A DNA stretch of 64,000 bases from Candidatus Omnitrophota bacterium (lineage in GTDB: Bacteria; Omnitrophota; Gorgyraeia; Zapsychrales; Zapsychraceae). The notes below the pieces were generated by a model, which was given only the letters and a program-made list of their open reading frames with translations, was not told the DNA's origin and did not search any database. The stretch lies in NCBI GenBank assembly GCA_029261065.1, contig JAJDCB010000023.1, positions 39,682-103,681 on the forward strand. Reading direction: 5' to 3'. Positions 7,478 through 59,989 of the stretch are shown in pieces. The number at the start of each line of letters is the position of its first letter. The stretch's first letter is position 1. Position numbers and translations under genes: made by a program.

Positions 7478-8362
7478 ATGTTTAAATATTACTGGGTCCC
7501 CGCTTTCGCGGGGATGACAATATTATTATTTTTATTAATAGAATCGCTTACGTTTAGCGTGGGATCTCCACTTTACCTGTCATTCCCGCGAATGCGGGAA
7601 TCTCATGCTAGCGATAATCTTAATTCAACTGTTACATCAAATTACGTTCTCACCACAGATAACAAAAAAATCAAATACGACCATTATCTCAATGGGCATA
7701 GCCAAGTTATAATCCTTGCCCATGGATTTTACAACAGCAAACAAGCTGTTTTGTTTAAGCAGATGGCTGCTGATTTGAGTGATGCGTATGATGTGATTGT
7801 TTTTGATTTTCGGGGGCATGGGGAAAGTGAGGGGGTGTTTACGTGGACGGCGAGGGAGCCGAAGGATTTGGAGGCGGTTGTTGATTATGCGCATAAGAGT
7901 TATCAAAAGGTAGGTGTTGTGGGTTTTTCTTTAGGGGCGGCATCAAGTTTGATTCTGGCGGCTCAATCGGATAAGATAACAAGTCTTATTGCGGTTAGTC
8001 CTCCTACAAAATTTAGACAAGTCGATTTTCATTTTTGGAAAATGGGTATGGCTGAGAATATTGTGTATAATACGTTTCAAGAAGGACGCATAGGTAAAGG
8101 CGTACGGCCCGGGTTATTGTGGCATAAAAAGACTCATCCGATAAACGTGGTGGATCAAATTCAAACTCCAACGATGTTTGTTCATGGCCAAGAAGATTGG
8201 TTGATTTTACCAGGGCATTCCAAAAAATTGTATGAAAAGGCTAAATGCCAAAAACAACTCAATATTGTTGAAGGCGGAACACATGCCGAGTACTTGTACC
8301 GATCGGATAAAGAGGGAATCATGGATATGTTTAAAGAATGGTTTCAGTTGACATTGTTGTAG
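7478..8362 (+). CDS. alpha/beta-fold hydrolase (esterase/lipase-like)
   Basis: Nucleophile elbow GFSLG; HGF...DFRGHGESEG; C-terminal GGTHAEY with His. The ORF-track start at 7370 overlaps the upstream gene. The true start is uncertain (7478 or 7592) because the 5' region is occupied by repeat units. Confidence 0.65.
   Translation: MFKYYWVPAFAGMTILLFLLIESLTFSVGSPLYLSFPRMRESHASDNLNSTVTSNYVLTTDNKKIKYDHYLNGHSQVIILAHGFYNSKQAVLFKQMAADLSDAYDVIVFDFRGHGESEGVFTWTAREPKDLEAVVDYAHKSYQKVGVVGFSLGAASSLILAAQSDKITSLIAVSPPTKFRQVDFHFWKMGMAENIVYNTFQEGRIGKGVRPGLLWHKKTHPINVVDQIQTPTMFVHGQEDWLILPGHSKKLYEKAKCQKQLNIVEGGTHAEYLYRSDKEGIMDMFKEWFQLTLL
7494..7603. repeat. Pair of GC-rich palindromic repeat units (GGGTCCCCGCTTTCGCGGGGATGACA ... 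TGTCATTCCCGCGAATGCGGGAATC) lying inside the 5' end of the hydrolase ORF
   Basis: Two hairpins of the repeat family read directly; both are in frame within ORF 7478-8362 (peptides VPAFAGMT and SFPRMRESH). Confidence 0.7.
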
Positions 8363-10934: not shown

Positions 10935-11052
10935 GTCGTCCCCGCCTCATCTGTCATTCCCGCGCCCGCCTGCCGGCAGGCAGGAAAGCGGGAATCTATT
11001 AATATTAAAAAAGTATTGGGATTCCAGTTGTCACGGGAATGACAACTGGAAT
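10935..11052. repeat. Compound palindromic repeat element: a GTCATTCCCGC...GCGGGAATC unit interrupted by an inner palindrome (CCTGCCGGCAGG), plus CCAGTTGTCA...TGACAACTGG
   Basis: Nested inverted repeats read directly in the 3' spacer of the membrane-protein gene. Confidence 0.65.
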
Positions 11053-11100
11053 TTGAATAATTATGAATCATGATAAAAAACAACAACAAAAGAGGCTACT

Positions 11101-21281: not shown

Positions 21282-21647
21282 ATGTCAAAAAAAATATTAA
21301 TTGTCGATGATGATCCTGTTATTGTGCGGTTAATGCAATCGAAGTTAAAAGAACAAGGCTATGATGTGTTCACTGCCGTCGATGGCTTAGATGCTCTTGT
21401 AAAAGTAAAGAAAGAAAATCCGGATTTGGTTGTTCTTGATATTGTTATGCCAGAAATAAATGGATATGATGTGTGTTGCGAACTTAGATTTAATAAAAAT
21501 TTTGAGAAGATTCCAATTGTTATTGTGACGGAGACGGAGAAGGAAATTGATGATAATATTGGAGAGCGCGTTAACATAGAACATTTATCAAAGCCTGTTG
21601 ATATCAAAGAATTGATGGAGAAGATAGAGAAACTGCTAAATGGGTGA
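21282..21647 (+). CDS. single-domain response regulator (CheY-like receiver)
   Basis: 121 aa; ILIVDDDP, phospho-acceptor Asp in VVLDIVMPEINGY, conserved T/K positions. Confidence 0.8.
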   Translation: MSKKILIVDDDPVIVRLMQSKLKEQGYDVFTAVDGLDALVKVKKENPDLVVLDIVMPEINGYDVCCELRFNKNFEKIPIVIVTETEKEIDDNIGERVNIEHLSKPVDIKELMEKIEKLLNG

Positions 21648-22317
21648 AGCCAAACGAAAAAACAAAAAGTCTGGTAGGTCATTTCAACTCTCACCACAGA
21701 AAAGTAAGTTTGCTACTATTTTTATTGTTGTTATTATTCTCGCTGTGGTGGGCATAGATTTTATCCAAAGAAGTAAAAACTCTCCTCTAACTTATTTTGA
21801 TCCAAATAGATCCAAGGGTAATGTCGAGGCGCCTTTACAAATCATTGAGTTTGTTGATTTTCAATGTCATGAATGTTTTAAGGGGGCGAAAATTCTAAAA
21901 TCTTATAGCGATAAATATCCTGAAGCTATCCATTTAACGATTAAACATTTTTCTTTAGGTCAAAAGAACTCCGTTATTGGGGCTATCTATGCGCAATGCG
22001 CCGCTAACCAAGAACAATTTTGGCCTATGCACGATTTGTTATTTGAGAATCAAAATAATTGGCGTAAGATGCCAGGTGTTGAAGCGTATTTAGATAGGTT
22101 TGTAGCACAATTGTCTTTGGATGGTAGTGCTTTTCAACAATGTGTCCAAAGCAACGATGTCCGTATTTTAGTTAACAATGAACATTCTTTAGGGCAAGCT
22201 CACTTTGTGCAATCAACCCCTGCTTATTTTATTAATGAAGAGTTGGTTGTTGGTCTTATAACCCTTGAGGCTTATTTAAAAGATTATTTTGAAGAGCAAA
22301 GAGGGGATTTATTATAA
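21640..22317 (+). CDS. DsbA/thioredoxin-fold thiol:disulfide oxidoreductase (membrane-anchored)
   Basis: 225 aa; start overlaps the RR stop (ATGGGTGA); N-terminal TM; CxxC active site in FVDFQCHECFKG. Confidence 0.65.
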   Translation: MGEAKRKNKKSGRSFQLSPQKSKFATIFIVVIILAVVGIDFIQRSKNSPLTYFDPNRSKGNVEAPLQIIEFVDFQCHECFKGAKILKSYSDKYPEAIHLTIKHFSLGQKNSVIGAIYAQCAANQEQFWPMHDLLFENQNNWRKMPGVEAYLDRFVAQLSLDGSAFQQCVQSNDVRILVNNEHSLGQAHFVQSTPAYFINEELVVGLITLEAYLKDYFEEQRGDLL

Positions 22318-22344
22318 GTGGCTTTTTGAAGTATTCGCGGGTAA

Positions 22345-22567
22345 TCTTGAGGCTAAAAACTTTTGTGATGCTCAAACATCCTTCGCTCAATAGCTTTTCT
22401 ATTGATGGTCAAGCCATATGATCATAAGAGCGAGTTCCACAGCAAGCAATTTTTAGAAAAATGCGTAGCGAGGACTGTCCGAGCGAATGATCATATGGCT
22501 TGACCATCAATTTATTGTAAGCTATCGGCTGCGGAACTGCGCGTGACAAAATTTTTTAGCCTCAAGA
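22345..22567. repeat. Long imperfect palindrome (~80-bp arms around a ~50-bp core), MITE-like or structured RNA
   Basis: The outer arms match perfectly (tcttgaggctaaaaa ... tttttagcctcaaga). The inner arms are a perfect 25-nt match (attgatggtcaagccatatgatcat 22411-22435 vs atgatcatatggcttgaccatcaat 22487-22511). The arm middles are partially matched. Confidence 0.7.
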
Positions 22568-22637
22568 TTGCCACTTGAATTTTCAAAGAGTTTCATAAGT
22601 TTATTAAATTATTTCGACTTAGAAAGAATTATTAGTT

Positions 22638-23498
22638 ATGAAAGTATCCTTAATTGGTGTTGGTTTGATGGGATATGCAATGGCCGAGAGACTTATTGCT
22701 TCAGGTCATCAGTTAACAGTCTTTAATCGTAGTACCTCAAAGGCTGAGCCTCTTAAAGAATTAGGGGCAACGATCGCGGTTAGTGCTAAAGATGCCATAC
22801 AAGAGGCTAGTGTTGTTATCCTTATGGTCAGTGATGCGCGCGCTATTGAGCAATTGCTTTTTACAGATGGGCAGGTAAATCTTTCTGGACAAACCATTAT
22901 TCAAATGGGAACGATAGCCCCTTCTGAGAGTATTGAAATTCAGAAAAAATTATTTAAGCAAGATTGCCACTACTTCGAATGTCCCGTACTCGGTTCTCGA
23001 AATGAAGCAAGGGAAGGGCGGTTAATTCTTTTAGTTGGGTCTTCGAAAGAAAAGTTTGAACGTTGGCTTGATTTTCTAAAAGTTTTTGGGCCTTCTCCTC
23101 GATGGATTGGTGATGTAGGAAAAGCCGCAGCACTAAAGTTGGCCTTAAATCAGTTGATTGCCGCTCATGCCTTAAGTTTTTCGTTAAGTTTAGGAATCAT
23201 TGAAAAGAATGAAGTGGACGTCGATACGTTTATGACCATATTACGAGAAAGTGCTTTGTATGCTCCTATGTATGATAAGAAGTTATCAAATTGGATGAAA
23301 CAAAGTTATGAAAATCCTAATTTTCCAACCAAACATCTTTTGAAAGATGTCGATTTGATTCTTGATGAGGTTAATAACAAAGGGTTGAGTAACGAAATAC
23401 TGCAGGCTATGAGAAATGTTATTGAACAGTCCGTTAACGAAGGTTTAGGTGATAAAGATTATTCTTCTGTTTTTCAAATTATTAATCGATTAAAATAA
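22638..23498 (+). CDS. NAD(P)-dependent oxidoreductase, 3-hydroxyisobutyrate/6-phosphogluconate dehydrogenase NAD-binding family
   Basis: 286 aa; N-terminal Rossmann motif (SLIGVGLMGYAMAERL) and a C-terminal catalytic helical domain. Confidence 0.75.
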   Translation: MKVSLIGVGLMGYAMAERLIASGHQLTVFNRSTSKAEPLKELGATIAVSAKDAIQEASVVILMVSDARAIEQLLFTDGQVNLSGQTIIQMGTIAPSESIEIQKKLFKQDCHYFECPVLGSRNEAREGRLILLVGSSKEKFERWLDFLKVFGPSPRWIGDVGKAAALKLALNQLIAAHALSFSLSLGIIEKNEVDVDTFMTILRESALYAPMYDKKLSNWMKQSYENPNFPTKHLLKDVDLILDEVNNKGLSNEILQAMRNVIEQSVNEGLGDKDYSSVFQIINRLK

Positions 23499-30915: not shown

Positions 30916-31533
30916 ATGGTTATGTTGGGATTGAGGCTGATAGTATTATGTATAATAATCGGTTTAATGGGAGTAAGTGTATCGTATGCTAATTATGAGG
31001 TGTATTCGACAGAAAGTCATGAAAAGGAAGCCGAGGATTTAATTCAGCAATATGTGCAACAAATGGTCGTGCATTCTTTTACAAGGAAGGTAACAGAACT
31101 TATTCGTGATATTGTTGTTCATCAAAATATTCAAATGTTTCCAGCTATTGTTATACAAGCAGGGCAGCAAGCAGCTGTACAGTCTTTTTCACAAGAAGAT
31201 ATAAGAGAAATGGTTCGAGAAGTGTATCAAAAAAGTTTTGATTTGGCTTTAGAGCAACGCAGAAGAGGATTTAGCCAAACTCAAATGCAAAATAATATAC
31301 AAGAAAGCATTGATAAGAAATTAGAACCTATCTTGGAGGAGCCCCTTTTTAAATTTGTTGTTGAACAAGTTCTTTTGCAGGCCGATGCTATGCAAAAACA
31401 GATTGTTATTATGGAAACATTTAGGCAACAAGCCCAACTGGCGAATTTGCAACAACAGCAAGTCGCGCGTCAGCAGCAAGTACAATCACAAATTCTGCAA
31501 TCTTTACCGCGAAATGCTGCTAATTATAGATGA
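30916..31533 (+). CDS. hypothetical secreted protein with a Gln-rich C-terminus
   Basis: AAGGAG RBS; signal-like N-terminus; QQQQVARQQQVQSQ tail. Confidence 0.4.
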   Translation: MVMLGLRLIVLCIIIGLMGVSVSYANYEVYSTESHEKEAEDLIQQYVQQMVVHSFTRKVTELIRDIVVHQNIQMFPAIVIQAGQQAAVQSFSQEDIREMVREVYQKSFDLALEQRRRGFSQTQMQNNIQESIDKKLEPILEEPLFKFVVEQVLLQADAMQKQIVIMETFRQQAQLANLQQQQVARQQQVQSQILQSLPRNAANYR

Positions 31534-31828
31534 TTTTAAAAAGATGAGATTAGGGGAAAAAGAGGGCTTTTAAAGAAAGGCTCTCTTTTTTATGGGTCCT
31601 ATTTTTTTTGTGCACACATGCAAAGCCTTTTAGAAACAATGTAAGGCTTAAGAAATATGAGAGTTTTAAGCCTTAATATGAAATACTAGAATTAAAACAT
31701 GTAATATTTTGCTATTTTTAGCTAAAAATAACAAAAAAGTACAATTTTTGGAAAAGTTAAGCTTTGTATTATGAGCTGTTGTTATATAAATGCTTATCAT
31801 TAATCTGAATAATTAGACATTCAACAAT

Positions 31829-38757: not shown

Positions 38758-38901
38758 TTAAGGGCTTTTGATAAGGAGCCTAACGTGTTAAACCAAATGA
38801 AATTTAATTGTCGGATGAGAATTAGAAAGGAAGAGAACTGTCTCTTCCTTTTTTTTATTTTGATAGAGAGATTGAAAATGTTGATAAACGGAGGATTTAA
38901 G

Positions 38902-40947
38902 ATGAAAAAATATGTTTCTGTATGGGCCATTATCATGTTTCTCGCAGTACCGAGTGTTGCAACTGCAATGGAGGAAGTAAAATTTATTCAAGCCGTTGAC
39001 CCGGGGTTTGTTCAACCCGTAGATACTGACGTTTCGCAAGCAGGAGATTTTTACGTGTTGGATCGCAAGGCCTCAAAAGTTTACGTGTTTGATAAGGAAG
39101 GAAAATTTCAATGGGGTTTTGGAGATCGTGGATTTGCTTTAGGTAAGATGTCTTTGCCTAATTCCCTGGCGATTTCGCTAAAGGGAAATGTTGTTATAGC
39201 AGACACAGGTAATTATCGGGCACAAGTATTTAATCGTAATGGACAAATTTTGTTTGAGTTGGGAAATAAAGGGACTTTGCCAGGTGAGTTTAAAAATGCA
39301 ACAAGTGTGGCTGTAGATCCTTTAGAAAATATCTATGTCGCAGATACGGAGTTAAACCGCATTTCTCAGTTTAGCCCTAAAGGAGTTTTCTTAAAGGTCA
39401 TGAATTTGGAATATAAGCCGATGGATTTAGCGTTTGATAAACAAGGAGCTATGTATGTGCTTTTGTCAGAGGCTGGTAAGATCGTCAAATATTCTATTGC
39501 AGGTGATGAGTTAAAGGAAATTACTTACTATCAAGACAAAGACAACGTGCTTGCCTCAACAGTGGGAATGACGGTGGATTCAAAGGGTGACATTTATCTT
39601 GTTGAACATAATAAACAAAGCATTAAGAAAATCGATCATAAGTCTCAGTTATTATTTTCTTTTGGTTCTCAGGGAGTAGGCAAAGGGCAATTTAACCATC
39701 CATTAGGAATATCAGCAGATGATTTAGGTAAAATTTATATCGCGGATTCTGCCAATAAAAGAGTACAGGTTTTAGAAATAAATGGAAGCACAAAACCAGA
39801 ATTGGCACAGGCCGTTTATTTGCGACCAGTTATTGATTATCAAAAAAGCCTTTCTGCTAATGATTCGATATCTGATGTCGATTATGTTCCCAACAAAGGG
39901 TTATATGCCTTATCGAATGAAAAAGGATATATTATTGTTAAAGGAGAACTTAATCAATTAATTGGTGACTCAAGTGATGAAAAGTTACATTTAAGCAATC
40001 CAAAAGCAATCCATGTGATGGATGATGGGCGTATGTTAGTAGCTGATACGGGTCATCATCGATTGAAGTTTCTTAAAACGGATGGTACTCATGATTATAC
40101 GTTTGGAAATAAAGGTGATCAAGATGGCGAATTTAATGCTCTTGAAGGTGTAGCCTCAGATTCAAAAGGGTATATCTATGTCGCTGATACAAACAATAAT
40201 CGTATCCAGATGTTTAATAGTGATGGCATTTATTTATCTTCTTTTGGTAGAAAGACGGAAGTATTAGATGATGCTAATCCAATGGGAGGAACTTTTCTGC
40301 ATCCAAAAGATTTGGCTTTTAATTCGAAAGATCATCTATACGTCTTAGATTATAAAAATAAGAGGATTCAAATCTTTGATGATCAGAAGATCTTTATTAA
40401 AGAAATAGGTGGGGCTCGCGATTTGGTAAAATTTTTAGAACCCATCGATATTGCGATTGATAACAACGATTATCTTTATGTAGCCGATCGTGGAGAACAC
40501 AATATTAAAGTGTTTGATCATGAAGGCCAATTAGTTCTTACCTTTGGATCCAATGGAAAAGGTCCAAGTCATTTTCCTGCGCTTTCAGCTATTGCTAGCT
40601 GGGAAGGGCAAATTTACGTTGCCAATAAAAATTTAGATGATATTGCTGTGTTCGCTTTTCAACCAAATAACACTATGAAAAAAGAACGCGTGTATATCAC
40701 AAAAATATCATTGCCATTACTCATGGATAACGCTACAGAAGAAATTAAACAGACAATGGCAAAGAAGTTGACGTTTGAAAATATCAGAAAAGAGTTATCA
40801 CAGAAACTAAATGTATCAGAGGACATATTAAATCAAGTTATTAAAGTAGAGGCTGAGGAATATTTAGGCGATGGAAGGTTAAAGTTGACTGTAAGTGCTC
40901 CTAAGGTTTTGCGAATGACTAAGACAGAAGTAGAGCCTATACAATAA
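38902..40947 (+). CDS. secreted NHL-repeat (six-bladed beta-propeller) protein
   Basis: ACGGAGGA RBS; signal peptide MKKYVSVWAIIMFLAVPSVATA. At least 8 NHL-type repeats (GxFxxPxGxAxDxxGxIYVADxxNxRIQxF, e.g. GEFNALEGVASDSKGYIYVADTNNNRIQMF). The 38785 start in the ORF track is an unsupported upstream extension. Confidence 0.75.
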   Translation: MKKYVSVWAIIMFLAVPSVATAMEEVKFIQAVDPGFVQPVDTDVSQAGDFYVLDRKASKVYVFDKEGKFQWGFGDRGFALGKMSLPNSLAISLKGNVVIADTGNYRAQVFNRNGQILFELGNKGTLPGEFKNATSVAVDPLENIYVADTELNRISQFSPKGVFLKVMNLEYKPMDLAFDKQGAMYVLLSEAGKIVKYSIAGDELKEITYYQDKDNVLASTVGMTVDSKGDIYLVEHNKQSIKKIDHKSQLLFSFGSQGVGKGQFNHPLGISADDLGKIYIADSANKRVQVLEINGSTKPELAQAVYLRPVIDYQKSLSANDSISDVDYVPNKGLYALSNEKGYIIVKGELNQLIGDSSDEKLHLSNPKAIHVMDDGRMLVADTGHHRLKFLKTDGTHDYTFGNKGDQDGEFNALEGVASDSKGYIYVADTNNNRIQMFNSDGIYLSSFGRKTEVLDDANPMGGTFLHPKDLAFNSKDHLYVLDYKNKRIQIFDDQKIFIKEIGGARDLVKFLEPIDIAIDNNDYLYVADRGEHNIKVFDHEGQLVLTFGSNGKGPSHFPALSAIASWEGQIYVANKNLDDIAVFAFQPNNTMKKERVYITKISLPLLMDNATEEIKQTMAKKLTFENIRKELSQKLNVSEDILNQVIKVEAEEYLGDGRLKLTVSAPKVLRMTKTEVEPIQ

Positions 40948-40979: not shown

Positions 40980-43900
40980 ATGAAGACATCGCAGTTAACT
41001 TTAATATTATTATTAGGTTTTGTGATGTCTTCTTTTTTGGGGTGTGATCAATTTCGTCCTCAGGAAAAGGGTCTGGTTATTGTTGATCCAAATTCAGAAG
41101 CAGTTGTTGTTGATGAGCAGGGAGATGAAATTGAAAGTGATTATGTTGATATTGTCGAAACGGTTAAGTCTTCAGAAACTGTTATCTTAAGAGATAACAA
41201 AATATTTACCAAAAATTCAAAGAAAAAATTTATTGAGAAAGATGCATCTCCCGCCATACCTGCAACAAAACAAGGTAACGTTAATAATTTAGAAGACGCT
41301 ATTAAAGAAGATCGTGTACCCACAACAAATTTTCAGTCTAAAGATACGCCTAAAGTTAAAAAAGTCGTTCATGAAAAAAGCATCGATCTCTGCAGTGATC
41401 AAGGATATATCTCCTCAGCCGAATGCCGCCTTTGTAGCGATATTCCAGGAGCTATTTGCAGTGAGACGATTAAATTATCTCATGGGGAGCAATGTTTTGA
41501 ATGTGCCACTCAACAAAAAACTTGCCGAGATTTAGGTTTTTTAAGTAAACGAGAATGTAAGAAATGTAATAAAAATGATGCGACAGAATGTGTATTTAAG
41601 GTAGAGGCGGACAACGGAAAATCTTGTTTTGAATGTGTGGATCGTGCCATCAAGTGTAAAGATTTAGGATTGATGAATTTGGATGAATGCACTTCGTGTG
41701 ACAAAGATCCTAAAATGGAATGCATTGCTGATCAGTTAACTGAGGAAGGGGTTAAGTGTTTTAATTGTGTCATTAAGCCTCAAAAATGTTCACAGCTTGG
41801 TCTCATTGATTTGCCTGGATGCCGTACGTGTCAGGAAGATCCCACAAAAGAATGTAAATCATCTAAGAAAACAAATTATGGGCAACAGTGTTATCAGTGT
41901 TTTGATAAAGAACAGAGTTGCGCGGAAATTAATCAATTAGATGTCTCAGAATGCTCAGGGTGTTTATCTCAGGCAGGTAAGGAATGTATAAAAACAGATA
42001 AAACCAAAGAAGGGTTGCAGTGTTATGGCTGTCAGGATCGTCATGAGTCTTGTGCGCATATAGGTTTGTTAAGCCAAGAGCAATGTGAGTCGTGTGACGC
42101 TAGTGAAAAGACACGCTGTGTTGCTGGACGTCAGACATTACAAGGTGAGTCTTGTTTTTCTTGTGTTAAAAAATCAAAAGATTGTCATGGGCTAGGTTAC
42201 CTTAGTCAAGAAGATTGCAGTATATGTGCTCAAAATCCACAAAAAGAGTGTCAGGCGGAGAGTCAAACAAAAGATGGCGAACAATGTTTCGTTTGTCAGG
42301 ATAAACCACAGCAATGTCAGGATTTGGGATTATTGGTGTCTAATCAATGTGAAGAATGTCAAAAGGATCCTACTAAAGAATGTGTGACCGCATTAAACAC
42401 GCAAGAAGGGCAACCATGTTTTGTTTGTCAGGATAAACCGCAACAGTGTCACGACATCGGTCAATTAGCGTTAGATATGTGTTCTGTTTGTTCGAAAGAT
42501 CCCAATAAGTTATGTTTACCAGGTGATAAAACCGAAGAGGGTGTCCAGTGTTATAACTGTGTCGATAGGCCGCAAGAGTGCAGTGATTTTAATCAACTAA
42601 AATTAGATGAATGTTTATTGTGCGAACAGGACGACAGTAAAAGATGTGTGGCGTATGACAAAACAGAAGAAGAGGTTCAGTGCTTTTTATGTGAGGATAA
42701 ACCGCAAGAGTGTAAAGATTTAGGGTTGTTAGCTCAAGATCAATGTGATTTATGTCAGCAAAATTCAAAGAAGGAATGTAGGGTTGATCAGGTTACAAAT
42801 AGCGGTGTGCAATGTTATTCATGCGCGGATAAACCACAGGAATGTCGGGATCTAGGATTGTTTAGTGAAGATGAATGTGGTTTGTGCGAAGAGAATCCAA
42901 AAAAACAATGTCAGATTGATAAACAAACGAAGGAAGGTGTGTCGTGTTTCATCTGTAAAGATAAGCCAAAGGATTGTTTAGACATTGGGTTATTAAATGA
43001 AGAGGGTTGTCAGATGTGTGAGGGGAATGAACGCAAGGACTGCCAAAAGGATGTTCTTACCGATGCCGGTGTGCAGTGTTATACATGTCAAGATAAGCCA
43101 CAAACTTGTGAAGACTTAGGCTTACTTAATCATGAAGGATGTGGGCGTTGTCAAGAAGATGAAAATACAGAATGTATTTTAGAGGCAAAAACAAATCAAG
43201 GGCAAGGTTGTTATTTGTGTGTAGAAAAATTGCAAGATTGTCAGCAGATTGATCAAATCGATTTATCAGAATGTGCGTCGTGTGAAAAAGATGTAAAAAA
43301 AGAATGCCAGATTGGTCAAAAGACAAAGCAAGGCAAACAATGTTATGAATGTGGAGAGAAGGCGCAAGAATGTCTGGATATAAATTTACTAAGTCTTGAT
43401 GAGTGTTTGGCCTGTGAGAAAGAAGATAATAAAATTTGTCAGCATAAAGATAAAACGAAGGAAGGGGTTCAATGTTATAGCTGTGAAGAGAAACCGCAAA
43501 CGTGTGTAGATTTAGGGTTAATAACGGAAGATGCCTGTGAAGTATGTAATCAGAATACAAGAACAGAATGTCAAGTAGATCAGATGACAAAAGAAGGAGT
43601 GTCTTGTTATTCTTGTCAGCAAAAACCTCAAGAGTGTCGAGATTTAGGGTTGTTTAGTTTGGATGAATGCGCCTCTTGTGAAGAAAATATGCGCAAACAG
43701 TGTCAAGAAGATCAGAAAACAGAAGGTGGGACACAATGTTACATTTGTCAGGACAAACCGCAAGCGTGTCATGACATAGGACTATTGGGAATAGATGAAT
43801 GTCAGCGCTGTGAAAGTCAATCTAATAAAATTTGTCAAGTGGATATCCTTACTGAGACCGGTACGCAATGCTTTACGTGTCAAGATAAGCCGCAAGAATG

Positions 43901-46900
43901 TGAAGACTTGGGGCTTCTTAAACAAGCACAATGTGAAACATGTCAGCGTGATGCGAATAAGGAATGCATGTTAACCGAGAAGACGAATCAAGGCGAGCAA
44001 TGTTTTGTGTGTGTTGAGAAGCCCCAAGATTGTTCACAGCTAAACCAGGTGAGTTTGGAAGAGTGTCAAACATGTAATGCCGATCCTGACAAAGAGTGTC
44101 GCGTAGGTAATAAAACGAAAGAGGGAACGCAATGTTATGAATGTGTAGATAAGCCGCAAGATTGTGCGCAGTTGGAATTGCTGAATTTAGAAGAGTGTTT
44201 TGTTTGCGAGGAAAATTCATCGAAAGAATGCGTATCAACTGTGAAAACAAAAGAAGGGATTCAGTGTTATGGTTGTCAGCAGAAAAAGGAAGAGTGTCGT
44301 GATATAGATTTATTATCAAAAGAGCAATGCGAATTTTGTGATCAGAATGCCAAGACAGAATGTCAGATGGATGCCCAAACAAAGGAGGGCAAGCAATGCT
44401 ATTCTTGTGTTCAAAAACCTCAAACGTGCCATGAGTTAGGGCTTTTTAGTCAGGATGATTGTTTAAGTTGTGAAAATAATAAACGCAAACAGTGTCAAGT
44501 TGATCAAAAGACAACGGATGGAACGCAATGTTTTATTTGTCAAGATAAGCCGCAAGAGTGTAATGATATTGGCTTATTAGATGAACCAGGATGTCAAGCC
44601 TGTGATGATAATCCAAACAAAGAATGTCAGGTAGATATTCAGACAGAAAATGGGGTGCAATGTTATACGTGTAAGGAAAAAGTTCAAGGGTGTGAACAAT
44701 TAGGATTTTTGAGCCAATCTCAATGCATGAGTTGTGAGGAAGATGGGCAGAATGAATGTGTTGGTAGTGATAAGACAGCGACTGGAGATCAATGTTATGT
44801 TTGTGTTGAAAAACCGCAATCGTGTGTGGAGCTTGATCAAGTTGGTTTGGAAGAATGTCAATCATGCGAAGCTGAAGATGGCAAAGAGTGCCATGTTGGT
44901 AACAAAACCAAAGAAGGACGACAATGTTATGTATGTGCTGATAAACCTCAAGAGTGTCACGACTTGGATTTAATTAATTTGGATGAATGTTTATCGTGTG
45001 AAGAAGATAGCAACATGAAATGTAACAGTAAAGGAAAAACGCAAGGTGGTATCCAGTGTTACGCCTGTGAAGAAAAGAAACAAGAGTGTCGTGATTTAGG
45101 ATTTTTAGCTTCAGATCAATGTGAGTTTTGTAATAAAAATGATAAAACGGAATGTCAAGAAAGTGAAAAAACAAAAAGTGGTGAGTTATGTTTCAGTTGT
45201 GTCATGAAACCTCAAACATGTCACGGTCTTGGGTTGTTTAGTTTAGATGATTGTCAAACATGCGAAAGTAATCCGCGTAAACAATGCCAGGCTGATCAAA
45301 TGACGGATGATGGATCCCAATGTTATATATGTCAAGATAAGCCGCAAAACTGTCGAGATATTGGACTGTTAGGCGAGGATGGATGTCAATTATGTGAGAA
45401 AAATAATAAGACATGTCAGGAAGATATATTAACGGAATCGGGCGTTCAGTGTTTTAGTTGTAAAGATAAACGAATGACGTGTGATGATTTGGGGCTACTT
45501 GGCCAATCTGATTGTAAAACGTGTGAGCATGATGCGAATAAGGAATGCATGCTATCCGAAAAAACGAACGATGGCGAACAATGTTTTGTCTGTGCCGAGA
45601 AGCCCCAAGATTGTTCTCAGTTAGATCAGATTAATTTGAGAGACTGTCAATCCTGTGAAAGCGACTCCTCGAAAGAATGTCGTGTTGGTAATAAGACGAA
45701 AGAAGGACGGCAGTGTTATGGATGTGTTGATAAACCACAAGAATGCGCGCAATTAGAACAGATAACGTTAGATGAATGTTTATCCTGCGAAGAAGATCCC
45801 AATAAAAAATGTATGACAAAAGATAAAACGCGTGAGGGCGTGCAATGCTACGCGTGTGAAGATAAGAAAAAAGAATGTCGAGATTTAGGCTTATTCTCCG
45901 AGGAACAATGTTCTTTCTGCCAACAGAATTCAAACACGGAATGTCAAGCTGTTGAAACAACACCTGATTCATTAACATGTTTCTCTTGTGTAGAAAAACC
46001 ACAAACGTGTCATGGTCTGGGTCTTTATAACCAAGAAAATTGTCAGAAGTGTGAAAGTAATCCACGTAAACAATGTCAGGCGGATCAAAAGACAAAAAGT
46101 GGAGAGCCGTGTTTTATTTGTCAGGATAAACCGCTTGAGTGTGAGGATATAGGTCTTCTAGATGAAGAGGGGTGTCGCGTTTGCCAAGATGGTTTGGGTA
46201 AGGTTTGTCAAAAAGATATTCTAACTGAGAATGGCGTGCAATGTTTTACTTGCGAAGAAAAACCGCAAGAGTGTCCGGATTTAGGTCTGTTAAGTTCAGA
46301 GGGATGTGCAGAGTGTCAAAACGATTTAACCAAGGATTGTTTACTAGCTCAGAAAACAAATCAAGGAGAAGAATGTTTCTTATGTGTGGATAAACCTCAA
46401 ACATGCCAAGGCATTGGTCAATTAAATTTAGACGAATGTCAAACGTGTGAATCAGATGGAACTAAAGAATGTTTGGCAGGAAATAAGACAAAAGAATCTC
46501 GTCAGTGTTACACATGTGAAGATAAAGCACAAACGTGTGAAAGTATAGATTTGATCAATTTAGATGAATGTCAAAATTGTGATGAACAGCCAAACATGGC
46601 CTGCAAAACGTCTCAGAGAACAAAGGAAGGGCGTCAATGTTATTCATGTGAAGAACGGGCTCCAGAGTGTCTAGACTTTGGGCTCTTATCACAAGAACAA
46701 TGTCAGCAATGTAATCAGAATCCATCCACGGAATGTCGAAAAGAAAAGAGTATGACATCAGGAGAAGGATGTTATGCCTGTGTGGATAAACCACAAGAAT
46801 GTCAGGACATTGGACTACTTAATCAAGAAGATTGTTCGCAATGTGAAAAAGATAAGCGAAAAGAATGTCGAGCTGATCAAACAACAAAAGAAGGCGTTCA

Positions 46901-47738
46901 ATGTTTTGTTTGTCAAAAGAAGCCAAAACAATGTGGAGATATTGGATTACTTGCGAAAGATCAATGTGTTCAGTGTGAAAAGAATGGAAGAAAGCAATGT
47001 CAGCAAGATTCGAAAACAAAATCAGGTGAGCAATGTTATGTGTGTGAAGATCGGCCTGAGGCGTGTGACGATTTAGGTTTGATTAATGACAAGCAATGTA
47101 AAACATGTGAAAGCAATCCAAAGGCCAAATGTGTGGCCACAGCTAAGACGAATAATTCTGATCAGTGCTTTAGATGTGTGATGCAAGAACAACAGTGTTC
47201 TGATATTGGACTCTCTGATTTATCAGAATGTTCAGCTTGTGAGAGTGATTCTAATAAACAATGTTTGGCTGCAAAAAAGACTGATAGTGGTATTCAATGT
47301 TATTCTTGTCAAGAGAAACCGAAGGGTTGTGCGAGTCTTTCACAACTAAGTTTGGCGGAATGTAATTCTTGTGAGACCGATGATAATAAGACATGTCAAC
47401 AAGCCAAGAAAACAGCCGATGGGGAGCAGTGTTATTCTTGTGAAGATAAACCACAACAACAACCAAGCCAGGCTTGCACAGATATTGGTCAGTCCAGTTT
47501 TGAACATTGTAAAGATTCATGTCCCGGGGAATGTTTGGAGGCTAGCTCCACAAAAAGTGCTGAACAATGTTACCGCTGTAAGGTTCCATTAGGAGCTCGA
47601 GAATGTCTGGATTATGAATATTTTCAAGATTGTAATTCTTGTACAGCAGATGAAAAATGTGCCAAGACAGGGTTGAGGTTGTTTGAAGGTAGTGGGCGTG
47701 GCGTTCCTTTAACCTGTTATACTTGCCGCCCGAAGTAA
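40980..47738 (+). CDS. giant cysteine-rich tandem-module lipoprotein (no recognised family)
   Basis: 2252 aa; TGGAG RBS; signal peptide with lipobox FLGC. About 45 tandem 44-aa modules with invariant spacing C-x2-C-x6-C-x10-C-x2-C-x7-C and core [DE]KPQxCxDLGLL. Very rich in K/E/D/Q; about 270 Cys in total. Confidence 0.8.
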   Translation: MKTSQLTLILLLGFVMSSFLGCDQFRPQEKGLVIVDPNSEAVVVDEQGDEIESDYVDIVETVKSSETVILRDNKIFTKNSKKKFIEKDASPAIPATKQGNVNNLEDAIKEDRVPTTNFQSKDTPKVKKVVHEKSIDLCSDQGYISSAECRLCSDIPGAICSETIKLSHGEQCFECATQQKTCRDLGFLSKRECKKCNKNDATECVFKVEADNGKSCFECVDRAIKCKDLGLMNLDECTSCDKDPKMECIADQLTEEGVKCFNCVIKPQKCSQLGLIDLPGCRTCQEDPTKECKSSKKTNYGQQCYQCFDKEQSCAEINQLDVSECSGCLSQAGKECIKTDKTKEGLQCYGCQDRHESCAHIGLLSQEQCESCDASEKTRCVAGRQTLQGESCFSCVKKSKDCHGLGYLSQEDCSICAQNPQKECQAESQTKDGEQCFVCQDKPQQCQDLGLLVSNQCEECQKDPTKECVTALNTQEGQPCFVCQDKPQQCHDIGQLALDMCSVCSKDPNKLCLPGDKTEEGVQCYNCVDRPQECSDFNQLKLDECLLCEQDDSKRCVAYDKTEEEVQCFLCEDKPQECKDLGLLAQDQCDLCQQNSKKECRVDQVTNSGVQCYSCADKPQECRDLGLFSEDECGLCEENPKKQCQIDKQTKEGVSCFICKDKPKDCLDIGLLNEEGCQMCEGNERKDCQKDVLTDAGVQCYTCQDKPQTCEDLGLLNHEGCGRCQEDENTECILEAKTNQGQGCYLCVEKLQDCQQIDQIDLSECASCEKDVKKECQIGQKTKQGKQCYECGEKAQECLDINLLSLDECLACEKEDNKICQHKDKTKEGVQCYSCEEKPQTCVDLGLITEDACEVCNQNTRTECQVDQMTKEGVSCYSCQQKPQECRDLGLFSLDECASCEENMRKQCQEDQKTEGGTQCYICQDKPQACHDIGLLGIDECQRCESQSNKICQVDILTETGTQCFTCQDKPQECEDLGLLKQAQCETCQRDANKECMLTEKTNQGEQCFVCVEKPQDCSQLNQVSLEECQTCNADPDKECRVGNKTKEGTQCYECVDKPQDCAQLELLNLEECFVCEENSSKECVSTVKTKEGIQCYGCQQKKEECRDIDLLSKEQCEFCDQNAKTECQMDAQTKEGKQCYSCVQKPQTCHELGLFSQDDCLSCENNKRKQCQVDQKTTDGTQCFICQDKPQECNDIGLLDEPGCQACDDNPNKECQVDIQTENGVQCYTCKEKVQGCEQLGFLSQSQCMSCEEDGQNECVGSDKTATGDQCYVCVEKPQSCVELDQVGLEECQSCEAEDGKECHVGNKTKEGRQCYVCADKPQECHDLDLINLDECLSCEEDSNMKCNSKGKTQGGIQCYACEEKKQECRDLGFLASDQCEFCNKNDKTECQESEKTKSGELCFSCVMKPQTCHGLGLFSLDDCQTCESNPRKQCQADQMTDDGSQCYICQDKPQNCRDIGLLGEDGCQLCEKNNKTCQEDILTESGVQCFSCKDKRMTCDDLGLLGQSDCKTCEHDANKECMLSEKTNDGEQCFVCAEKPQDCSQLDQINLRDCQSCESDSSKECRVGNKTKEGRQCYGCVDKPQECAQLEQITLDECLSCEEDPNKKCMTKDKTREGVQCYACEDKKKECRDLGLFSEEQCSFCQQNSNTECQAVETTPDSLTCFSCVEKPQTCHGLGLYNQENCQKCESNPRKQCQADQKTKSGEPCFICQDKPLECEDIGLLDEEGCRVCQDGLGKVCQKDILTENGVQCFTCEEKPQECPDLGLLSSEGCAECQNDLTKDCLLAQKTNQGEECFLCVDKPQTCQGIGQLNLDECQTCESDGTKECLAGNKTKESRQCYTCEDKAQTCESIDLINLDECQNCDEQPNMACKTSQRTKEGRQCYSCEERAPECLDFGLLSQEQCQQCNQNPSTECRKEKSMTSGEGCYACVDKPQECQDIGLLNQEDCSQCEKDKRKECRADQTTKEGVQCFVCQKKPKQCGDIGLLAKDQCVQCEKNGRKQCQQDSKTKSGEQCYVCEDRPEACDDLGLINDKQCKTCESNPKAKCVATAKTNNSDQCFRCVMQEQQCSDIGLSDLSECSACESDSNKQCLAAKKTDSGIQCYSCQEKPKGCASLSQLSLAECNSCETDDNKTCQQAKKTADGEQCYSCEDKPQQQPSQACTDIGQSSFEHCKDSCPGECLEASSTKSAEQCYRCKVPLGARECLDYEYFQDCNSCTADEKCAKTGLRLFEGSGRGVPLTCYTCRPK
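41470..47490 (+). repeat. Intragenic tandem repeat: 132-bp unit (one 129-bp copy) with a higher-order super-repeat of 6 units (792 bp)
   Basis: Protein periodicity read directly. Antisense stop-free artefact ORFs at 43126 and 43918 are exactly 792 bp apart. Comparable modules 12 units apart (e.g. 43930-44040 vs 45510-45620) look about 80-85% identical by eye. Confidence 0.75.
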
Positions 47739-48575: not shown

Positions 48576-48745
48576 TGTCATTCCCGAGGCATCGGGAATC
48601 AAATGGATTCCGGCTCTTCGGCCGGAATGACATAAGAGTACTTGTCAGAATGACACGAGAGTATTTGTCGGAATGACACAAAAACACCTGTCATTCCCGA
48701 GACATCGGGAATCTATTAGGTTCTGGATCTTCGGCTGAAATGATC
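48576..48745. repeat. Cluster of four or more GC-rich nested palindromic repeat units (TGTCATTCCCGAGGCATCGGGAATC; GGATTCCGGCTCTTCGGCCGGAATGACA; direct repeats ...TTGTCRGAATGACA...; TGTCATTCCCGAGACATCGGGAATCTATTAGG)
   Basis: Read directly in the 260-bp spacer between the YkgJ-like gene and cmoA. Confidence 0.75.
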
Positions 48746-53600: not shown

Positions 53601-53810
53601 GTTAAGACAAGTGAGGTTTGGATTGTTGATTATAAATCGTCGCAAGATGAGGGCGGTGATTATGAAAAACAAGTGGGAGAATATATGGCTTTGGTTGATA
53701 AGTTGTATCCTCAGCATGAGATCAAAGGATTTATTGTTTACTTAGATGATTTACATATGCAAGAAGTGAAATCAATCAGCACTGTCATTACTGAGACATC
53801 AGGAATCTAA
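50616..53810 (+). CDS. AddA-like UvrD-family helicase with C-terminal PD-(D/E)xK nuclease
   Basis: 1064 aa. Walker A ASAGSGKTYAL; motif II LIDEFQDTS; motif III YVGDRKQAIYGFRGG; motif IV NWRSQ. C-terminal nuclease IVDYKSS...E.YM. The last 9 codons plus the stop lie in a repeat-family unit. Confidence 0.8.
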   Translation: MSTSPNTQFQFPEVRVVEASAGSGKTYALSKQYIQLLLNPKLLFDHVPMRNILALTFTNKAAFEMKRRIIQFLKIIAFKQLTKDQEEDVLGSIGINREEASKKAFTIMEALINNYNFFQVQTIDKFINALLSGCAFKIGLTANFRIKTNSKDYLEYSLDQLIDQALRDKDTLKLLQEFLHHYLYLENRLGWFPKKDMLEIVKALFMQNNTYGLMFEETEYSSQDIIKKKRLILDEMRNLKSIMPEGADLRFVKAFDKFLLDREKGFDIDSISDYFKREVFPAKKNVEVSRAVEKSWDKIHKSLKQLCEEEAFSLFNPYIQIYDQVKGIFLERAARDDVLFLEELNKRAGALFDDDYVTVEELYYRLATRFHHYLIDEFQDTSALQWHNLEKMAEEALSTGGSLFYVGDRKQAIYGFRGGNVALFDQIKMRFKSFNVQIAQLTNNWRSQKSVVEFNNAVFGMENLKHFIEQKQAREISKKKKNPVVFYDDDFLELQNIFGSSQQSHQPKNDKGFVYIQKIEAAKKEDRDEIIREHVLELVDALRKRFSFSDIAFLTRSNYEVEQLTNWLLEEKIPVESERTSNIKENVLIAEIVSFLKFLHSPIDNIAFADFILGDIFTKATGLSKTTIQEFVFLLRARTSKERDFYIYTEFRKQFPEVWDKYIESSFANVGLYPLYELAISFYSLYDCLNLFPEFQGYLMHFLEIIKNQEEEHSDIESFLEYYDELIGEALYVHVTDTDAIKILTVHKSKGLEFPVVIIPFLGMDVQVGVSQEQQMSYILQEHENSLQLLRLKGKYLGFSEKLYEIYAKEYKKAFISELNNIYVAMTRAQHELYAFIPEKIGQSFNLAQLLIPEDVYQCGQPHIYEKSKAKSMAVKRLSASSYQDWIHFLNDEFLDEDQIHNRQKKLGGEVVHSMLSFIGNLAHEDKELALEQAYSHAQMNFPFVDHLDAYLKKVKQLLNNKRFESIFSDKDAQVFTEKEIVNAFGHSKRIDRLIVKTSEVWIVDYKSSQDEGGDYEKQVGEYMALVDKLYPQHEIKGFIVYLDDLHMQEVKSISTVITETSGI

Positions 53811-53903
53811 TGGATTCCCGATGTCTCGGGAATGACAGGCTCCGGTTTGTCATTCCCGCGAAGGCGGGAATCTAATGGTTTTCCCCCGTCATGGGGGAAT
53901 GAT
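53791..53903. repeat. Three GC-rich palindromic repeat units (CTGTCATTACTGAGACATCAGGAATCTAATGG; GGATTCCCGATGTCTCGGGAATGACA; TGTCATTCCCGCGAAGGCGGGAATCTAATGG; TTCCCCCGTCATGGGGGAA)
   Basis: Read directly; the first unit supplies the C-terminal codons TVITETSGI and the stop of the AddA-like ORF. Confidence 0.75.
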
Positions 53904-57266: not shown

Positions 57267-58751
57267 ATGAAGAAAATTTCTAACATCATTTTTTATGGGC
57301 TGATTGTTTTGTTTTTGTATGTTCAGCTAACAACTATCAAAGCAGGTCATAGTTGGGGAGGAGATTTTAGTCAGTATATTCAGCATGCGAAAAATCTGAT
57401 TGAATTAAAACCTTATCATCAAGGCATTATGCTTGATGAGTGGGTGAATAACCCTGTTGGTTTTCCTTTGATGTTAGCGCCTTGGATTAAGGTTTTTGGT
57501 GTTAATTTTAAAGTTTTAAAAATTATCAATGTGCTTAGCTGGTTGTTTTTTGTTCTGTTTTTAAGAGCCTTAGCCAAAAAACGTTTGGATGATCCTTTAG
57601 CGGATCTGTTAAGTATTTGTCTTTTAACCTCACCTTTTTTCTTCACATTTAAACAAAATATCATTAGTGATGTCCCTTTCTTAAGTTTGCTTACTTGTTC
57701 CCTTTTTTTATGTCATCATTTTTTTACCACAAAGAAACATTCCTTTGCATTTTTGTGTCTTCTAGCGATTAGTTTGAGTTTTACCTTACTTATTCGTTGG
57801 GCAGGACTAACGCTATTTGCTTCGGTCATTTTGTATTTGTTGATCAATGCCTATGACAAGAAATATGTCGTGGCAACGATGTTGATTCTAGGTTTAACAA
57901 TCTTTGTTCAATCTTTAGCCGGTATCAATTTGGGTCACCATCTTCAAGAGGGACCTCAGGGGTGGGTGGCTTGGAGTCATCAGTCTTACCAATTGATGTC
58001 TTATAATCTTAATAATTTTTTTATATTTTTTGTGCCTTCCTTTAAAGGGGTGGTTTTATCTCGCGGTGTCACGTTTTTGTTTACAGATATCGTGACTCCC
58101 ATCATATTTTTTGGTAGCATTCTATTTTTATTATTGAGAATGATGAAAAAGAAAGCGGATATTCTAGAATATTTTTTATTAGTTTATTTGTGCGCCTTGT
58201 TGATTTGGCCTCTGCAGGGAGGGGTAAGATATGTTTTACCGATTGTTGGTGTTTGTTTGATTTTGATGATCCAGGGCGTTGTCGTTGGTTTGCAAAAGCA
58301 AGATCCGAAAGCATGGGTTGTTAAGGGATTGTGTTTATTGTTAATCATGAGCAATGGTGTTCACATCTATAAAAATTATTCATTTAACGATGATGTGATT
58401 GCTCAACCCGATACACAAGAGTTGATTGCTTGGATCAAAGAGACAACACAGCCAGAGGATCATTTCATGTTTCAGCGACCGCGTACTCTTACTTTAATAA
58501 CAGATCGAAAATTTGCGCCATTTTTTATTTATAGTCAGGATGCGGCTAAGTGGTATCAACGTATTGAACGGTTTAACATCCGTTATCTTCTCGCCTTTAA
58601 TTCCTCCGTTCATAAAATGCTTTCAAGTTTTCCTCCGGATTATATACAATTGCGACAGGTGTGGCAGAATGAGAAGTATGTAGTTTTGGAAGTGGTTGAG
58701 ATAAAAGGTCGTGATGTCATTCCTGCGGAAGTGGGGAATTCAAAAAAGTAA
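57267..58751 (+). CDS. polytopic GT-C/PMT_2-like membrane protein immediately downstream of the pilin (possible pilin glycosyltransferase)
   Basis: 494 aa with about 11 TM helices. N-terminal loop AGHSWGGDFSQYIQHAKNL...PVGFPLML. The placement resembles pilA-tfpW-type arrangements (inference). Confidence 0.4.
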   Translation: MKKISNIIFYGLIVLFLYVQLTTIKAGHSWGGDFSQYIQHAKNLIELKPYHQGIMLDEWVNNPVGFPLMLAPWIKVFGVNFKVLKIINVLSWLFFVLFLRALAKKRLDDPLADLLSICLLTSPFFFTFKQNIISDVPFLSLLTCSLFLCHHFFTTKKHSFAFLCLLAISLSFTLLIRWAGLTLFASVILYLLINAYDKKYVVATMLILGLTIFVQSLAGINLGHHLQEGPQGWVAWSHQSYQLMSYNLNNFFIFFVPSFKGVVLSRGVTFLFTDIVTPIIFFGSILFLLLRMMKKKADILEYFLLVYLCALLIWPLQGGVRYVLPIVGVCLILMIQGVVVGLQKQDPKAWVVKGLCLLLIMSNGVHIYKNYSFNDDVIAQPDTQELIAWIKETTQPEDHFMFQRPRTLTLITDRKFAPFFIYSQDAAKWYQRIERFNIRYLLAFNSSVHKMLSSFPPDYIQLRQVWQNEKYVVLEVVEIKGRDVIPAEVGNSKK

Positions 58752-58796
58752 ATAATGTTATCTTTGTGTAAGTTGGAAGCTCGAAAAATTAATCTC

Positions 58797-58870
58797 TGTC
58801 ATCCCCGCGAAAGCGGGGATCTCGAAGGTGTTATAATTATGAATAGTTCCCCGCTTTCGCGAGGATGACA
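58797..58870. repeat. Two GC-rich palindromic repeat units (TGTCATCCCCGCGAAAGCGGGGATC ... TTCCCCGCTTTCGCGAGGATGACA)
   Basis: Read directly between convergent gene ends. Confidence 0.7.
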
Positions 58871-58877
58871 CTATTGT

Positions 58878-59726
58878 TTAATGCGGCGCAAAGAGCTTAT
58901 GTTCAACGAGTAGCTCATAAAGCTTATCCGCTATCCGCTGATTAACCAAAACACTTGCATGCGAATCATTTTTATTAATCACACGTTTTAGAACGGGTAT
59001 ATCTTCAACCAAATTTGCAACATTGATTGTTGGGATTTGAAAGCGAAAGAAAAACTCTTCAACAAAGTTTGTGAATTCCAAACTTTCATGGGTGTTATGT
59101 AAAAATGGAATGACTACAACGTAGGTGGGAATTTTATTTTCTTGAGCGTATTTGACAAGATGAAGGAGGTCTCTTGTGTGTTCGTTAAGAATGAATTTGT
59201 TGTTGTAAGCCTTTTTTAAAAAGGCTAGATAATCTTCGGTGTCTTTGCGCGGAAATTGCCAGTAGATAAAGTTTATCAGATAAGAATTTTTAGTCATAAA
59301 TTGAAACACATAAGGAACATCAGAGTAGGCGGTAAAACCTTTAAAGGTGTGTCCATTAGCGGTTGCCGCCCCTTCAATATCATTGACAAAATATTGAAAG
59401 ATAAGAACGTTTGGTTTGATTGGAAATTTAATGAGTCGATAAAGTTCAGTTGCGGTATCGTTACCTAGTCGCCCAAGATTTAACACGTGATACTCATGCG
59501 ATAGTCTTTTTTTTAAGATGTTTGAGAACCTTTCATCCACATGCTTTAGGCCATGTCCGGCAACAAAAGAATCTCCGATGACAAATAATGTTTTTTTATC
59601 TTTAAAATCTTCTTTTTGAAGCTCCTCATCCCGATACCGTAATTTATTTACAGGTTTCCAGTAATAATCAAACCAACGGTTAGAAGCTAATGTGTAGCCA
59701 ACAGTGTGGCTTTGGGGGATGAACAT
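58878..59726 (-). CDS. SGNH/GDSL-family hydrolase (esterase/acyltransferase-like)
   Basis: 282 aa; GDS(L)-like block LFVIGDSFVAGHG; block III and catalytic DSHAS (DxxH) near the C-terminus; in-frame stop 10 codons upstream of the ATG. Confidence 0.7.
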   Translation of the reverse strand: MFIPQSHTVGYTLASNRWFDYYWKPVNKLRYRDEELQKEDFKDKKTLFVIGDSFVAGHGLKHVDERFSNILKKRLSHEYHVLNLGRLGNDTATELYRLIKFPIKPNVLIFQYFVNDIEGAATANGHTFKGFTAYSDVPYVFQFMTKNSYLINFIYWQFPRKDTEDYLAFLKKAYNNKFILNEHTRDLLHLVKYAQENKIPTYVVVIPFLHNTHESLEFTNFVEEFFFRFQIPTINVANLVEDIPVLKRVINKNDSHASVLVNQRIADKLYELLVEHKLFAPH

Positions 59727-59989
59727 GAAGAAGCCTTCAAGGAGAAAAAAAGGCTAAAGAGACCAAGAAAAATAAGTGCGATGTTTTTCATGGACTCGGA
59801 CGCTCTTTTATTTTTATAGATAAGTTGAAAAAATAGAAGACAACTTAGTATTAAACATGCGATGAGCAGAATTAAGCGGAGGGTGAGATAGATAAAGGTA
59901 GGAAATGGGGTGGAGTCGAGGTAGGTGATGAGGAAGGGGGTGGTGAGTGTTGTGAGGAAGAGGAGGATTGTGATTAGAGTTTTCATTTT
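59687..59989 (-). CDS. small 3-TM membrane protein, possibly the frameshifted N-terminal anchor of the SGNH hydrolase
   Basis: ATG at 59989 (MKTLITILLFL...). Overlaps the SGNH ORF by 40 nt in another frame, across an A7/T7 tract. Confidence 0.4.
   Translation of the reverse strand, partial: KMKTLITILLFLTTLTTPFLITYLDSTPFPTFIYLTLRLILLIACLILSCLLFFQLIYKNKRASESMKNIALIFLGLFSLFFSLKASSCSSPKATLLATH

Follow-up and report, generated by a model that had tools for sequence, protein, structure and literature searches.

What is the long palindrome that fills most of the spacer between a DsbA-like gene and an oxidoreductase gene in this Candidatus Omnitrophota genome, and how did it come to be there? Within the window, by which we mean the whole 64,000-nucleotide stretch analysed, the feature is an imperfect palindrome at 22340-22572 with its centre at 22456, built from two pairs of arms around a core. 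The outer arms, 35 nt each (22340-22374 and 22538-22572), were paired by the repeat finder at 86% complementarity, the first 20 nt on the left being nearly perfect (GGTAATCTTGAGGCTAAAAA), and they include the 15-mers TCTTGAGGCTAAAAA (22345-22359) and TTTTTAGCCTCAAGA (22553-22567). The inner arms are a perfect 25-mer, ATTGATGGTCAAGCCATATGATCAT (22401-22425), which contains CATATG, TGATCA and GATC, and its perfect reverse complement (22487-22511). Between them lies a weakly self-complementary core or loop of 61 nt (22426-22486) that holds a central mini-palindrome, ATTTTTAGAAAAAT, at 22449-22462. The left arm middle (22375-22400) is poorly complementary to its counterpart, both in the alignment and as interior loops in the predicted folds; when the left half is compared with the reverse complement of the right, ATAGCTT is the sole block common to both arm middles, and it is displaced by 3 nt. 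An initial annotation of this DNA had described much of this anatomy, and its outer and inner arm sequences, its partly complementary arm middles and the CATATG and TGATCA self-palindromes of the inner 25-mer were all recovered where it had placed them. The outer arms proved longer than it had described, and the core, which it had put at roughly 50 bp, is larger.

Weaker symmetry reaches outward from the central ATTTTTAGAAAAAT to about 22305-22607 in the half-to-half alignment, so that nearly the entire 320-bp spacer forms one palindrome centred on 22456. Aligned with its own reverse complement, the element is 70.8% identical over 243 columns, an identity that is spread very unevenly along the arms: about 20 outer and 25 inner nucleotides are near-perfect, and the intervening stretches are close to random apart from ATAGCTT. 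A perfect pair like the inner 25-mers was expected 0.00 times in 100 shuffles, and the palindrome is real and far beyond chance. From the same alignment, together with the relatives that have no counterpart (see below), we placed the whole palindromic insertion, about 275 bp long, at 22320-22594, with boundaries good to about 10 nt on either side; neither the insertion nor its parts are assigned to a strand.

A palindrome in a short-read assembly may also be a fold-back chimera, an explanation that we find hardly credible here. Fold-back artefacts give perfect palindromes, whereas the two arms are about 71% alike and differ by indels. The independent Logan assembly of run SRR15505515, which contains the same organism, confirms 22296-22469 and everything from 22521 onward at 100% identity, and thereby the outer arms on both sides, the inner arm on the left and the larger part of the loop. 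What could be said for an artefact is that the Logan contigs of this run leave 22470-22520 unspanned, the region that holds the right inner arm. Logan contigs also break in plain coding sequence, however (at 20676 and 35809), so that the break inside the palindrome (22469 / 22521) is uninformative; for the same reason we rejected the use of contig breaks as a detector of repeats.

The genes on either side agree with those named in the initial annotation, and both lie on the + strand. Upstream is the DsbA/thioredoxin-like gene (21640-22317), whose product has a CHEC active site and an intact C-terminus, alignable with those of homologues; the extra DNA therefore lies wholly in the spacer, where the element begins just after the stop codon TAA (22315-22317). 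The DsbA-like gene is overlapped on its upstream side by a response-regulator gene, which a glutamate-synthase-like gene precedes. Downstream is the gene for an NAD-binding beta-hydroxyacid dehydrogenase-like oxidoreductase (22638-23498), with GldA/F/G-like ABC transporter genes directly after it. The 320-bp spacer is mostly filled by the element, and the part outside the insertion, 22598-22637 on the + strand, is probably native spacer that includes the oxidoreductase ribosome-binding region.

Three related loci with a conserved gene neighbourhood were available for comparison. All are distant, with DsbA-like proteins 37-43% identical to that of the window, and the next-best DsbA-like homologue among 5.8 billion proteins is 43% identical; the source lineage is poorly sampled. 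The closest public relative (L006, from a metagenome-assembled genome labelled Lysobacterales, 37% GC) has the order glutamate-synthase-like / response regulator / DsbA-like / oxidoreductase, its four syntenic proteins sharing 60, 53, 42 and 53% identity with their window counterparts, and a 43-bp spacer with no palindrome. A Logan locus (L005; response regulator / DsbA-like / oxidoreductase) has a 6-bp spacer, also with no palindrome. The third, from JGI (L004), lacks the oxidoreductase gene, so that the DsbA-like gene is followed by the ABC transporter genes across 84 bp that hold no such sequence. No hairpin was found at the DsbA-like/oxidoreductase junction in L005 or L006, and none of related sequence at the junction in any of the three. 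Since these junctions hold only 43, 6 and 84 bp without such sequence, the palindrome is, on comparison of gene neighbourhoods, a lineage-specific insertion of about 275 bp placed directly after the DsbA-like stop codon. The notion of an inserted element put forward in the initial annotation fits this absence from the corresponding junction in all three relatives.

The last ~40 nt of the window spacer (AGTTTATTAAATTATTT) loosely resemble the L006 spacer (43 bp) at its start (AGTTTAGTAATTATTT), a likeness equalled by the scores of 195 of 2000 shuffles (p ~0.1) and so no more than suggestive.

Our leading reading, which we hold tentatively and at not quite even probability, is that the palindrome is an orphan: a decayed, MITE-like insertion that is transcribed together with its neighbours and folds into a long RNA hairpin, a possible target of RNase III. 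Its likeliest source is a small palindrome of the MITE, ERIC or Correia kind, non-autonomous and mobilised in trans, which would have settled in what is in the relatives a tightly packed string of glutamate-synthase-like, response regulator, DsbA-like, oxidoreductase and ABC transporter genes. Later decay would have left the halves ~71% alike, with only the 25-nt inner and ~20-nt outer blocks near-perfect. Bacterial MITEs are described as elements with terminal inverted repeats that measure less than ~400 bp, encode no transposase, fold into a long hairpin and can sit on the 3' side of a gene, where they are usually co-transcribed (Delihas 2011, Genome Biol Evol, PMC3184786). The element shares with them its length below ~400 bp, its non-coding, AT-rich intergenic setting, its terminal inverted repeats, its long hairpin, its place just 3' of a gene with the co-transcription that this would bring, and its absence at the relatives' site. 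Its terminal repeats enclose a short core without a transposase, as in a MITE, and form part of a palindrome that runs the whole length; the window ORFs that were scanned contained no transposase domain. Presence in one lineage and absence at the orthologous sites of others is likewise as in MITEs, the relatives compared here being distant ones. The element differs from MITEs in that no second copy, convincing target-site duplication or partner insertion sequence was detected, and in that its symmetry extends over the whole length and not over the termini alone.

Multiple copies are a defining property of MITEs (PMC3184786), and here the evidence goes against the leading reading. No second copy was found in the 64-kb window by exact, 3-mismatch or sensitive blastn searches, nor in the further 3.8 kb available from the same organism (L086). 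Blastn and nhmmer against the 87 fetched loci matched only the same locus, and blastn against plasmids and phages gave no match. Neither 185,579 species-representative genomes nor IMG/VR contained a match to the inner-arm 20-mer. Its one occurrence, in a JGI metagenome (L003, 10985-11004), was rejected as chance, lying inside a 1647-aa helicase/methylase-like ORF in which it encodes MVKPYDH, a case that illustrates how single 20-mer matches in such collections need a check of their context. The outer-arm 19-mer was scanned in IMG/VR only, where its single match, inside coding-looking sequence of a viral contig, was also put down to chance. At the protein level, none of the five small ORFs in or overlapping the spacer and element occurred in a 15-billion-protein collection, and a profile built from the two longest open frames gave no candidates among 5.8 billion proteins, a weak search in that the element's own copy is not gene-called.

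These searches covered ~68 kb of the source genome, and the DNA collections searched do not contain that genome; within this sequence and the public collections the element is single-copy. The proposal of a MITE is accordingly weakened by the copy search, as judged from the sequence covered, rather than excluded, because so small a part of the source genome was included. The independent assembly adds a further indication: one of its contigs (L001) enters the element by 150 nt without a break or branching, whereas another (L086) ends at about window position 7522, inside a copy of the GC-rich repeat family of the window, as expected for a multi-copy repeat. This contrast argues against identical sister copies in the sample.

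That GC-rich family is REP-like, with a hairpin core TGTCATTCCCGCGAAGGCGGGAATC and variants, and occurs in intergenic sequence, often as paired or inverted units, at 1234-1303, 7483-7607, 10939-11062, 48576-48743, 53783-53902 and 58715-58878. The palindrome is unrelated to it in sequence, as the initial annotation had held and as our searches support. The presence of this second palindromic repeat family shows that such elements are tolerated in the source genome.

The ends of the insertion are no more decisive. ATAAGT occurs on the + strand at both edges, at 22314-22319, where it overlaps the DsbA-like stop codon (TAA, 22315-22317), and at 22595-22600, but an equally placed 6-nt repeat arose in 2675 of 20000 shuffled flanks (13%). 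The outermost bases of the element (GG... and ...TTTC) are not complementary. With the direct repeat at chance level and the end bases mismatched, a target-site duplication is unproven, and the check for one proposed in the initial annotation thus turned up a flanking repeat no better than chance. Of its MITE candidate, then, the insertion and the MITE-like form stand, and the copy number and target-site duplication are unsupported. It had been prepared to give the palindrome up as a single copy with neither transcription nor conservation; for copy number and conservation our results come close to that, and lean towards refutation on these two points.

Among the small palindromic elements already described, some that come close in overall form are ERIC (~127 bp) and YPAL/RU-2 (~168 bp) of Enterobacteriaceae and Yersinia, whole-length imperfect palindromes of transcribed intergenic regions that fold in mRNA and can change its stability (PMC3184786). 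The element resembles them in being an intergenic imperfect palindrome along its whole length, and differs in having no sequence similarity to them, about twice their length, an unrelated host lineage and apparently a single copy. A distant-mode blastn search of 5,426 complete E. coli genomes returned nothing at E <= 0.01, so that likeness to ERIC does not extend to sequence.

Correia (NEMIS) elements of Neisseria measure ~104-157 bp and carry 26-bp terminal inverted repeats. In its proportions, the inner unit at 22401-22511, taken by itself, compares well with them: it is 111 bp long, and its perfect inverted repeats of 25 bp enclose 61 bp of core. RNase III cleaves Correia hairpins within mRNAs, and it is this mechanism that is proposed here for the palindrome. 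Unlike Correia elements, the unit has no IHF consensus, no promoter-like hexamers and no repetition, and the TA duplication of Correia elements is not evident, the flanks reading T...T and not TA...TA.

Rickettsia palindromic elements (RPE, ~105-146 bp) offer a further likeness as palindromic insertions in AT-rich genomes, and the arms of the element have inward open reading frames; in the best-conserved 12 codons, five of the six differences between the arms fall at third codon positions (p ~0.05 by our own estimate, which is marginal). The element differs from RPEs in lying outside coding sequence, with the DsbA-like C-terminus intact and no similar called proteins.

Was the palindrome ever mobile? 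A continuous symmetry is the expectation for an ERIC-like element, and equally for a palindrome made on the spot, by an inverted duplication, for instance through template switching or fold-back replication at a short pre-existing inverted repeat, followed by divergence, with no mobility and no sister copies. This second origin is possible, though we think it rather unlikely. It accounts readily for a single copy in everything searched and for flanks with no significant target-site duplication; the symmetry is continuous from ATTTTTAGAAAAAT to the flanks, where it seems to fade with no sharp stop, and is not confined to the termini. The two strands also fold equally well under DNA parameters (-66.0 vs -66.2 kcal/mol), as a DNA-level palindrome would give. 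What it lacks is a source: the relatives' junction is only 6-43 bp long, leaving no visible local origin for an arm of ~135 bp, neither arm resembles the neighbouring sequence beyond chance, and peptides translated from the arms match nothing in the window or the fetched loci by tblastn. Moreover, a perfect 25-nt block within arms that are otherwise ~50-70% alike is hard to reconcile with uniform decay, and would need local constraint or gene conversion.

Two specific sources for the arms were considered and rejected. The first was the DsbA-like gene at its 3' end: LEAKNFCDAQ and LEAYLKDYFEEQ, the translations compared between the arm and that gene end, look alike, but the shared 9-mer CTTGAGGCT was equalled or beaten by 17-25% of other window segments. 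The second was a pair of convergent gene ends, of which the arms would be remnants. The traits that recall such an origin are differences mostly at third codon positions, the in-frame 3-nt shift and a TAG common to both arms, but the signal is marginal (~p 0.05 by our own count) and tblastn found no source gene.

If the palindrome is transcribed, what would it do? Scans of 22318-22637 found no sigma-70-like promoter and no intrinsic-terminator pattern, the terminator tool covering short stems and loops only. Because no promoter or terminator was recognised in the spacer and the orthologous genes abut, co-transcription is probable, and the + strand of the element would then be transcribed within a polycistronic mRNA. 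The predicted fold of such an RNA is very strong. For the 256-nt stretch, the predicted energies are -112.5 kcal/mol (+ strand) and -105.9 kcal/mol (- strand), where shuffled sequences give -61 and -58 (z -11.0 and -10.3, respectively), and none of 200 shuffles folded as well. Extended to 22296-22616, the + strand reaches -128.9 kcal/mol with 119 pairs, compared with -111.1 for the - strand. The long interrupted hairpin described in the initial annotation is therefore borne out as a prediction for the transcript, should there be one.

Within the mRNA, the element would form a stem of ~119 interrupted base pairs topped by the perfect 25-bp duplex. Such a perfect duplex is the kind of substrate that RNase III cuts. 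Any effect would most likely be passive or mildly regulatory, through processing of the mRNA between the two halves of the operon, or alternatively through a block to 3'-to-5' exonucleases that would stabilise the upstream part; effects on mRNA stability are known for co-transcribed palindromic repeats (PMC3184786). We infer all three of these elements of the model, the origin by transposition, the co-transcription and the RNA processing.

A stronger version makes function the reason for the palindrome's presence. Whatever its origin, it may be a selected cis-acting RNA, an intercistronic stem-loop that sets the relative levels of the operon halves via RNase III, protection from exonucleases or partial termination; we regard this as unlikely. 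The probable operon and a spacer without promoter or terminator motif suit such a role, as do the known effects of co-transcribed palindromic repeats on mRNA stability (PMC3184786) and the pattern of conservation, in which the inner 25 bp and ~20 outer bp were kept perfect and the rest drifted. The sense strand folds better than the other (-128.9 vs -111.1 kcal/mol), with 13 G.U pairs against five, but this excess lies within what the G- and T-rich composition of the + strand predicts (p = 0.22), and we rejected the asymmetry as a sign of selection at the RNA level. Beyond the stem base the sequence reads ACUUGAAUUUUCA, with no adjacent run of at least five U, and without a U-tract after the stem it is not a canonical terminator.

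The relatives cut both ways for a selected RNA. In the JGI locus the equivalent place, immediately downstream of the DsbA-like gene and ahead of those for the ABC transporter, is occupied by a GC-rich hairpin of 70 nt that is unrelated to the palindrome (1631-1701; -43.4 kcal/mol, z -5.6), whereas the junctions of L005 and L006 are without a hairpin, and the feature is thus not conserved. Rfam searches, moreover, yielded no family even at E <= 10: the whole window had no match at gathering thresholds, and in 22200-22700 the best scores were 15-19.5 bits against thresholds of 35-80, which is chance level. Of the cis-acting RNA suggested in the initial annotation there remains the long fold, if transcribed, and neither an Rfam family nor a related hairpin in relatives. 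Taken together with the copy search, the element is one for which the sequences searched hold no detectable relatives and no known RNA family.

A bolder proposal, which we would call a long shot, links the palindrome and the JGI hairpin as examples of a recurrently acquired intercistronic device. In this little-known, AT-rich lineage, long stem-loops directly after the DsbA-like gene would be selected for uncoupling or balancing the expression of the upstream redox and regulator genes relative to the downstream oxidoreductase and ABC transporter genes, through RNase III processing or the blocking of exonucleases, and the perfect blocks of 25 bp and ~20 bp would be its functional parts.

An independent small RNA gene, be it for a rod-shaped RNA like 6S or for some other structured non-coding RNA, seems to us very improbable. 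The fold is indeed a long rod, in which a poorly paired middle separates the outer stem from the apical one, and a length of ~230-300 nt is within the range of structured RNAs. Yet no Rfam family, 6S included, matched the window at gathering thresholds or the region at E <= 10, the edges carry no promoter-like hexamers or terminator, the two strands fold almost equally, as is typical of a DNA palindrome, and the relatives do not have it.

Equally improbable is a role for the sequence as DNA, be it a cruciform, an attC-like or dif-like recombination site, a replication-related site or a palindromic site for a binding protein, even with its perfect 25-bp inverted repeats and two symmetric GATC sites. 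Wide spacing between arms disfavours cruciform extrusion from duplex DNA, and because 61 bp separate the only perfect arms, extrusion is implausible here. The attC sites of integrons range from roughly 57 to 141 bp, far below the ~233-275 bp of the element, and 22290-22640 contains no attC core sites (GTTRRRY / RYYYAAC; the R''/R' motif) and no IHF consensus, which sets the element apart from integron attC sites. The neighbouring ORFs tested showed no integrase, recombinase or transposase. GC skew is positive window-wide, leaving no origin or terminus nearby. The cruciform, recombination or replication-related site entertained in the initial annotation consequently finds no footing, given the 61 bp between the perfect arms and the lack of a GC-skew switch in the window.

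The window as a whole has a strong orientation: of the 47 ORFs of at least 120 aa, 44 lie on the + strand, and every 2-kb bin of 1-64000 has a positive GC skew (0.08-0.31), so that the window lies within one replichore. Rare exceptions are two overlapping ORFs of 282 and 125 aa on the - strand at 58878-60064, with a copy of the GC-rich repeat alongside. An IS3-like pair was suspected here, but no transposase domain and no Pfam domain was found in them.

As a new orphan among small palindromic intergenic insertions, the element belongs to a kind already known. If it is the decayed MITE-like insertion that we favour, it is part of the ordinary natural history of genomes, an instance of small palindromic elements settling between operon genes, here in a poorly sampled lineage, and it has no bearing on a long-standing open question. 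In practical terms, the palindrome marks a likely break point for short-read assemblies. It would gain greater weight only if the hairpin proved to be processed or to set the ratio of the operon halves, or if a new repeat family with a partner transposase emerged.

Several other features of the window deserve mention. An AT-rich 56-bp palindrome at 31694-31749, in the spacer that follows the ORF at 30916-31533, has 31-nt arms that overlap at the centre and are 84% complementary, and may be a terminator-type hairpin. The ORF at 40980-47738 (+) encodes 2252 aa with dozens of ~44-aa Cys-rich repeats bearing CxxC-type motifs; the repeat period is 132 nt, and the units share only 60-80% DNA identity. 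Just before it, at 38785-40947, is a gene for a 720-aa NHL-repeat beta-propeller protein, and DNA related to this gene at about 62670-62712 suggests a paralogue that runs off the window.
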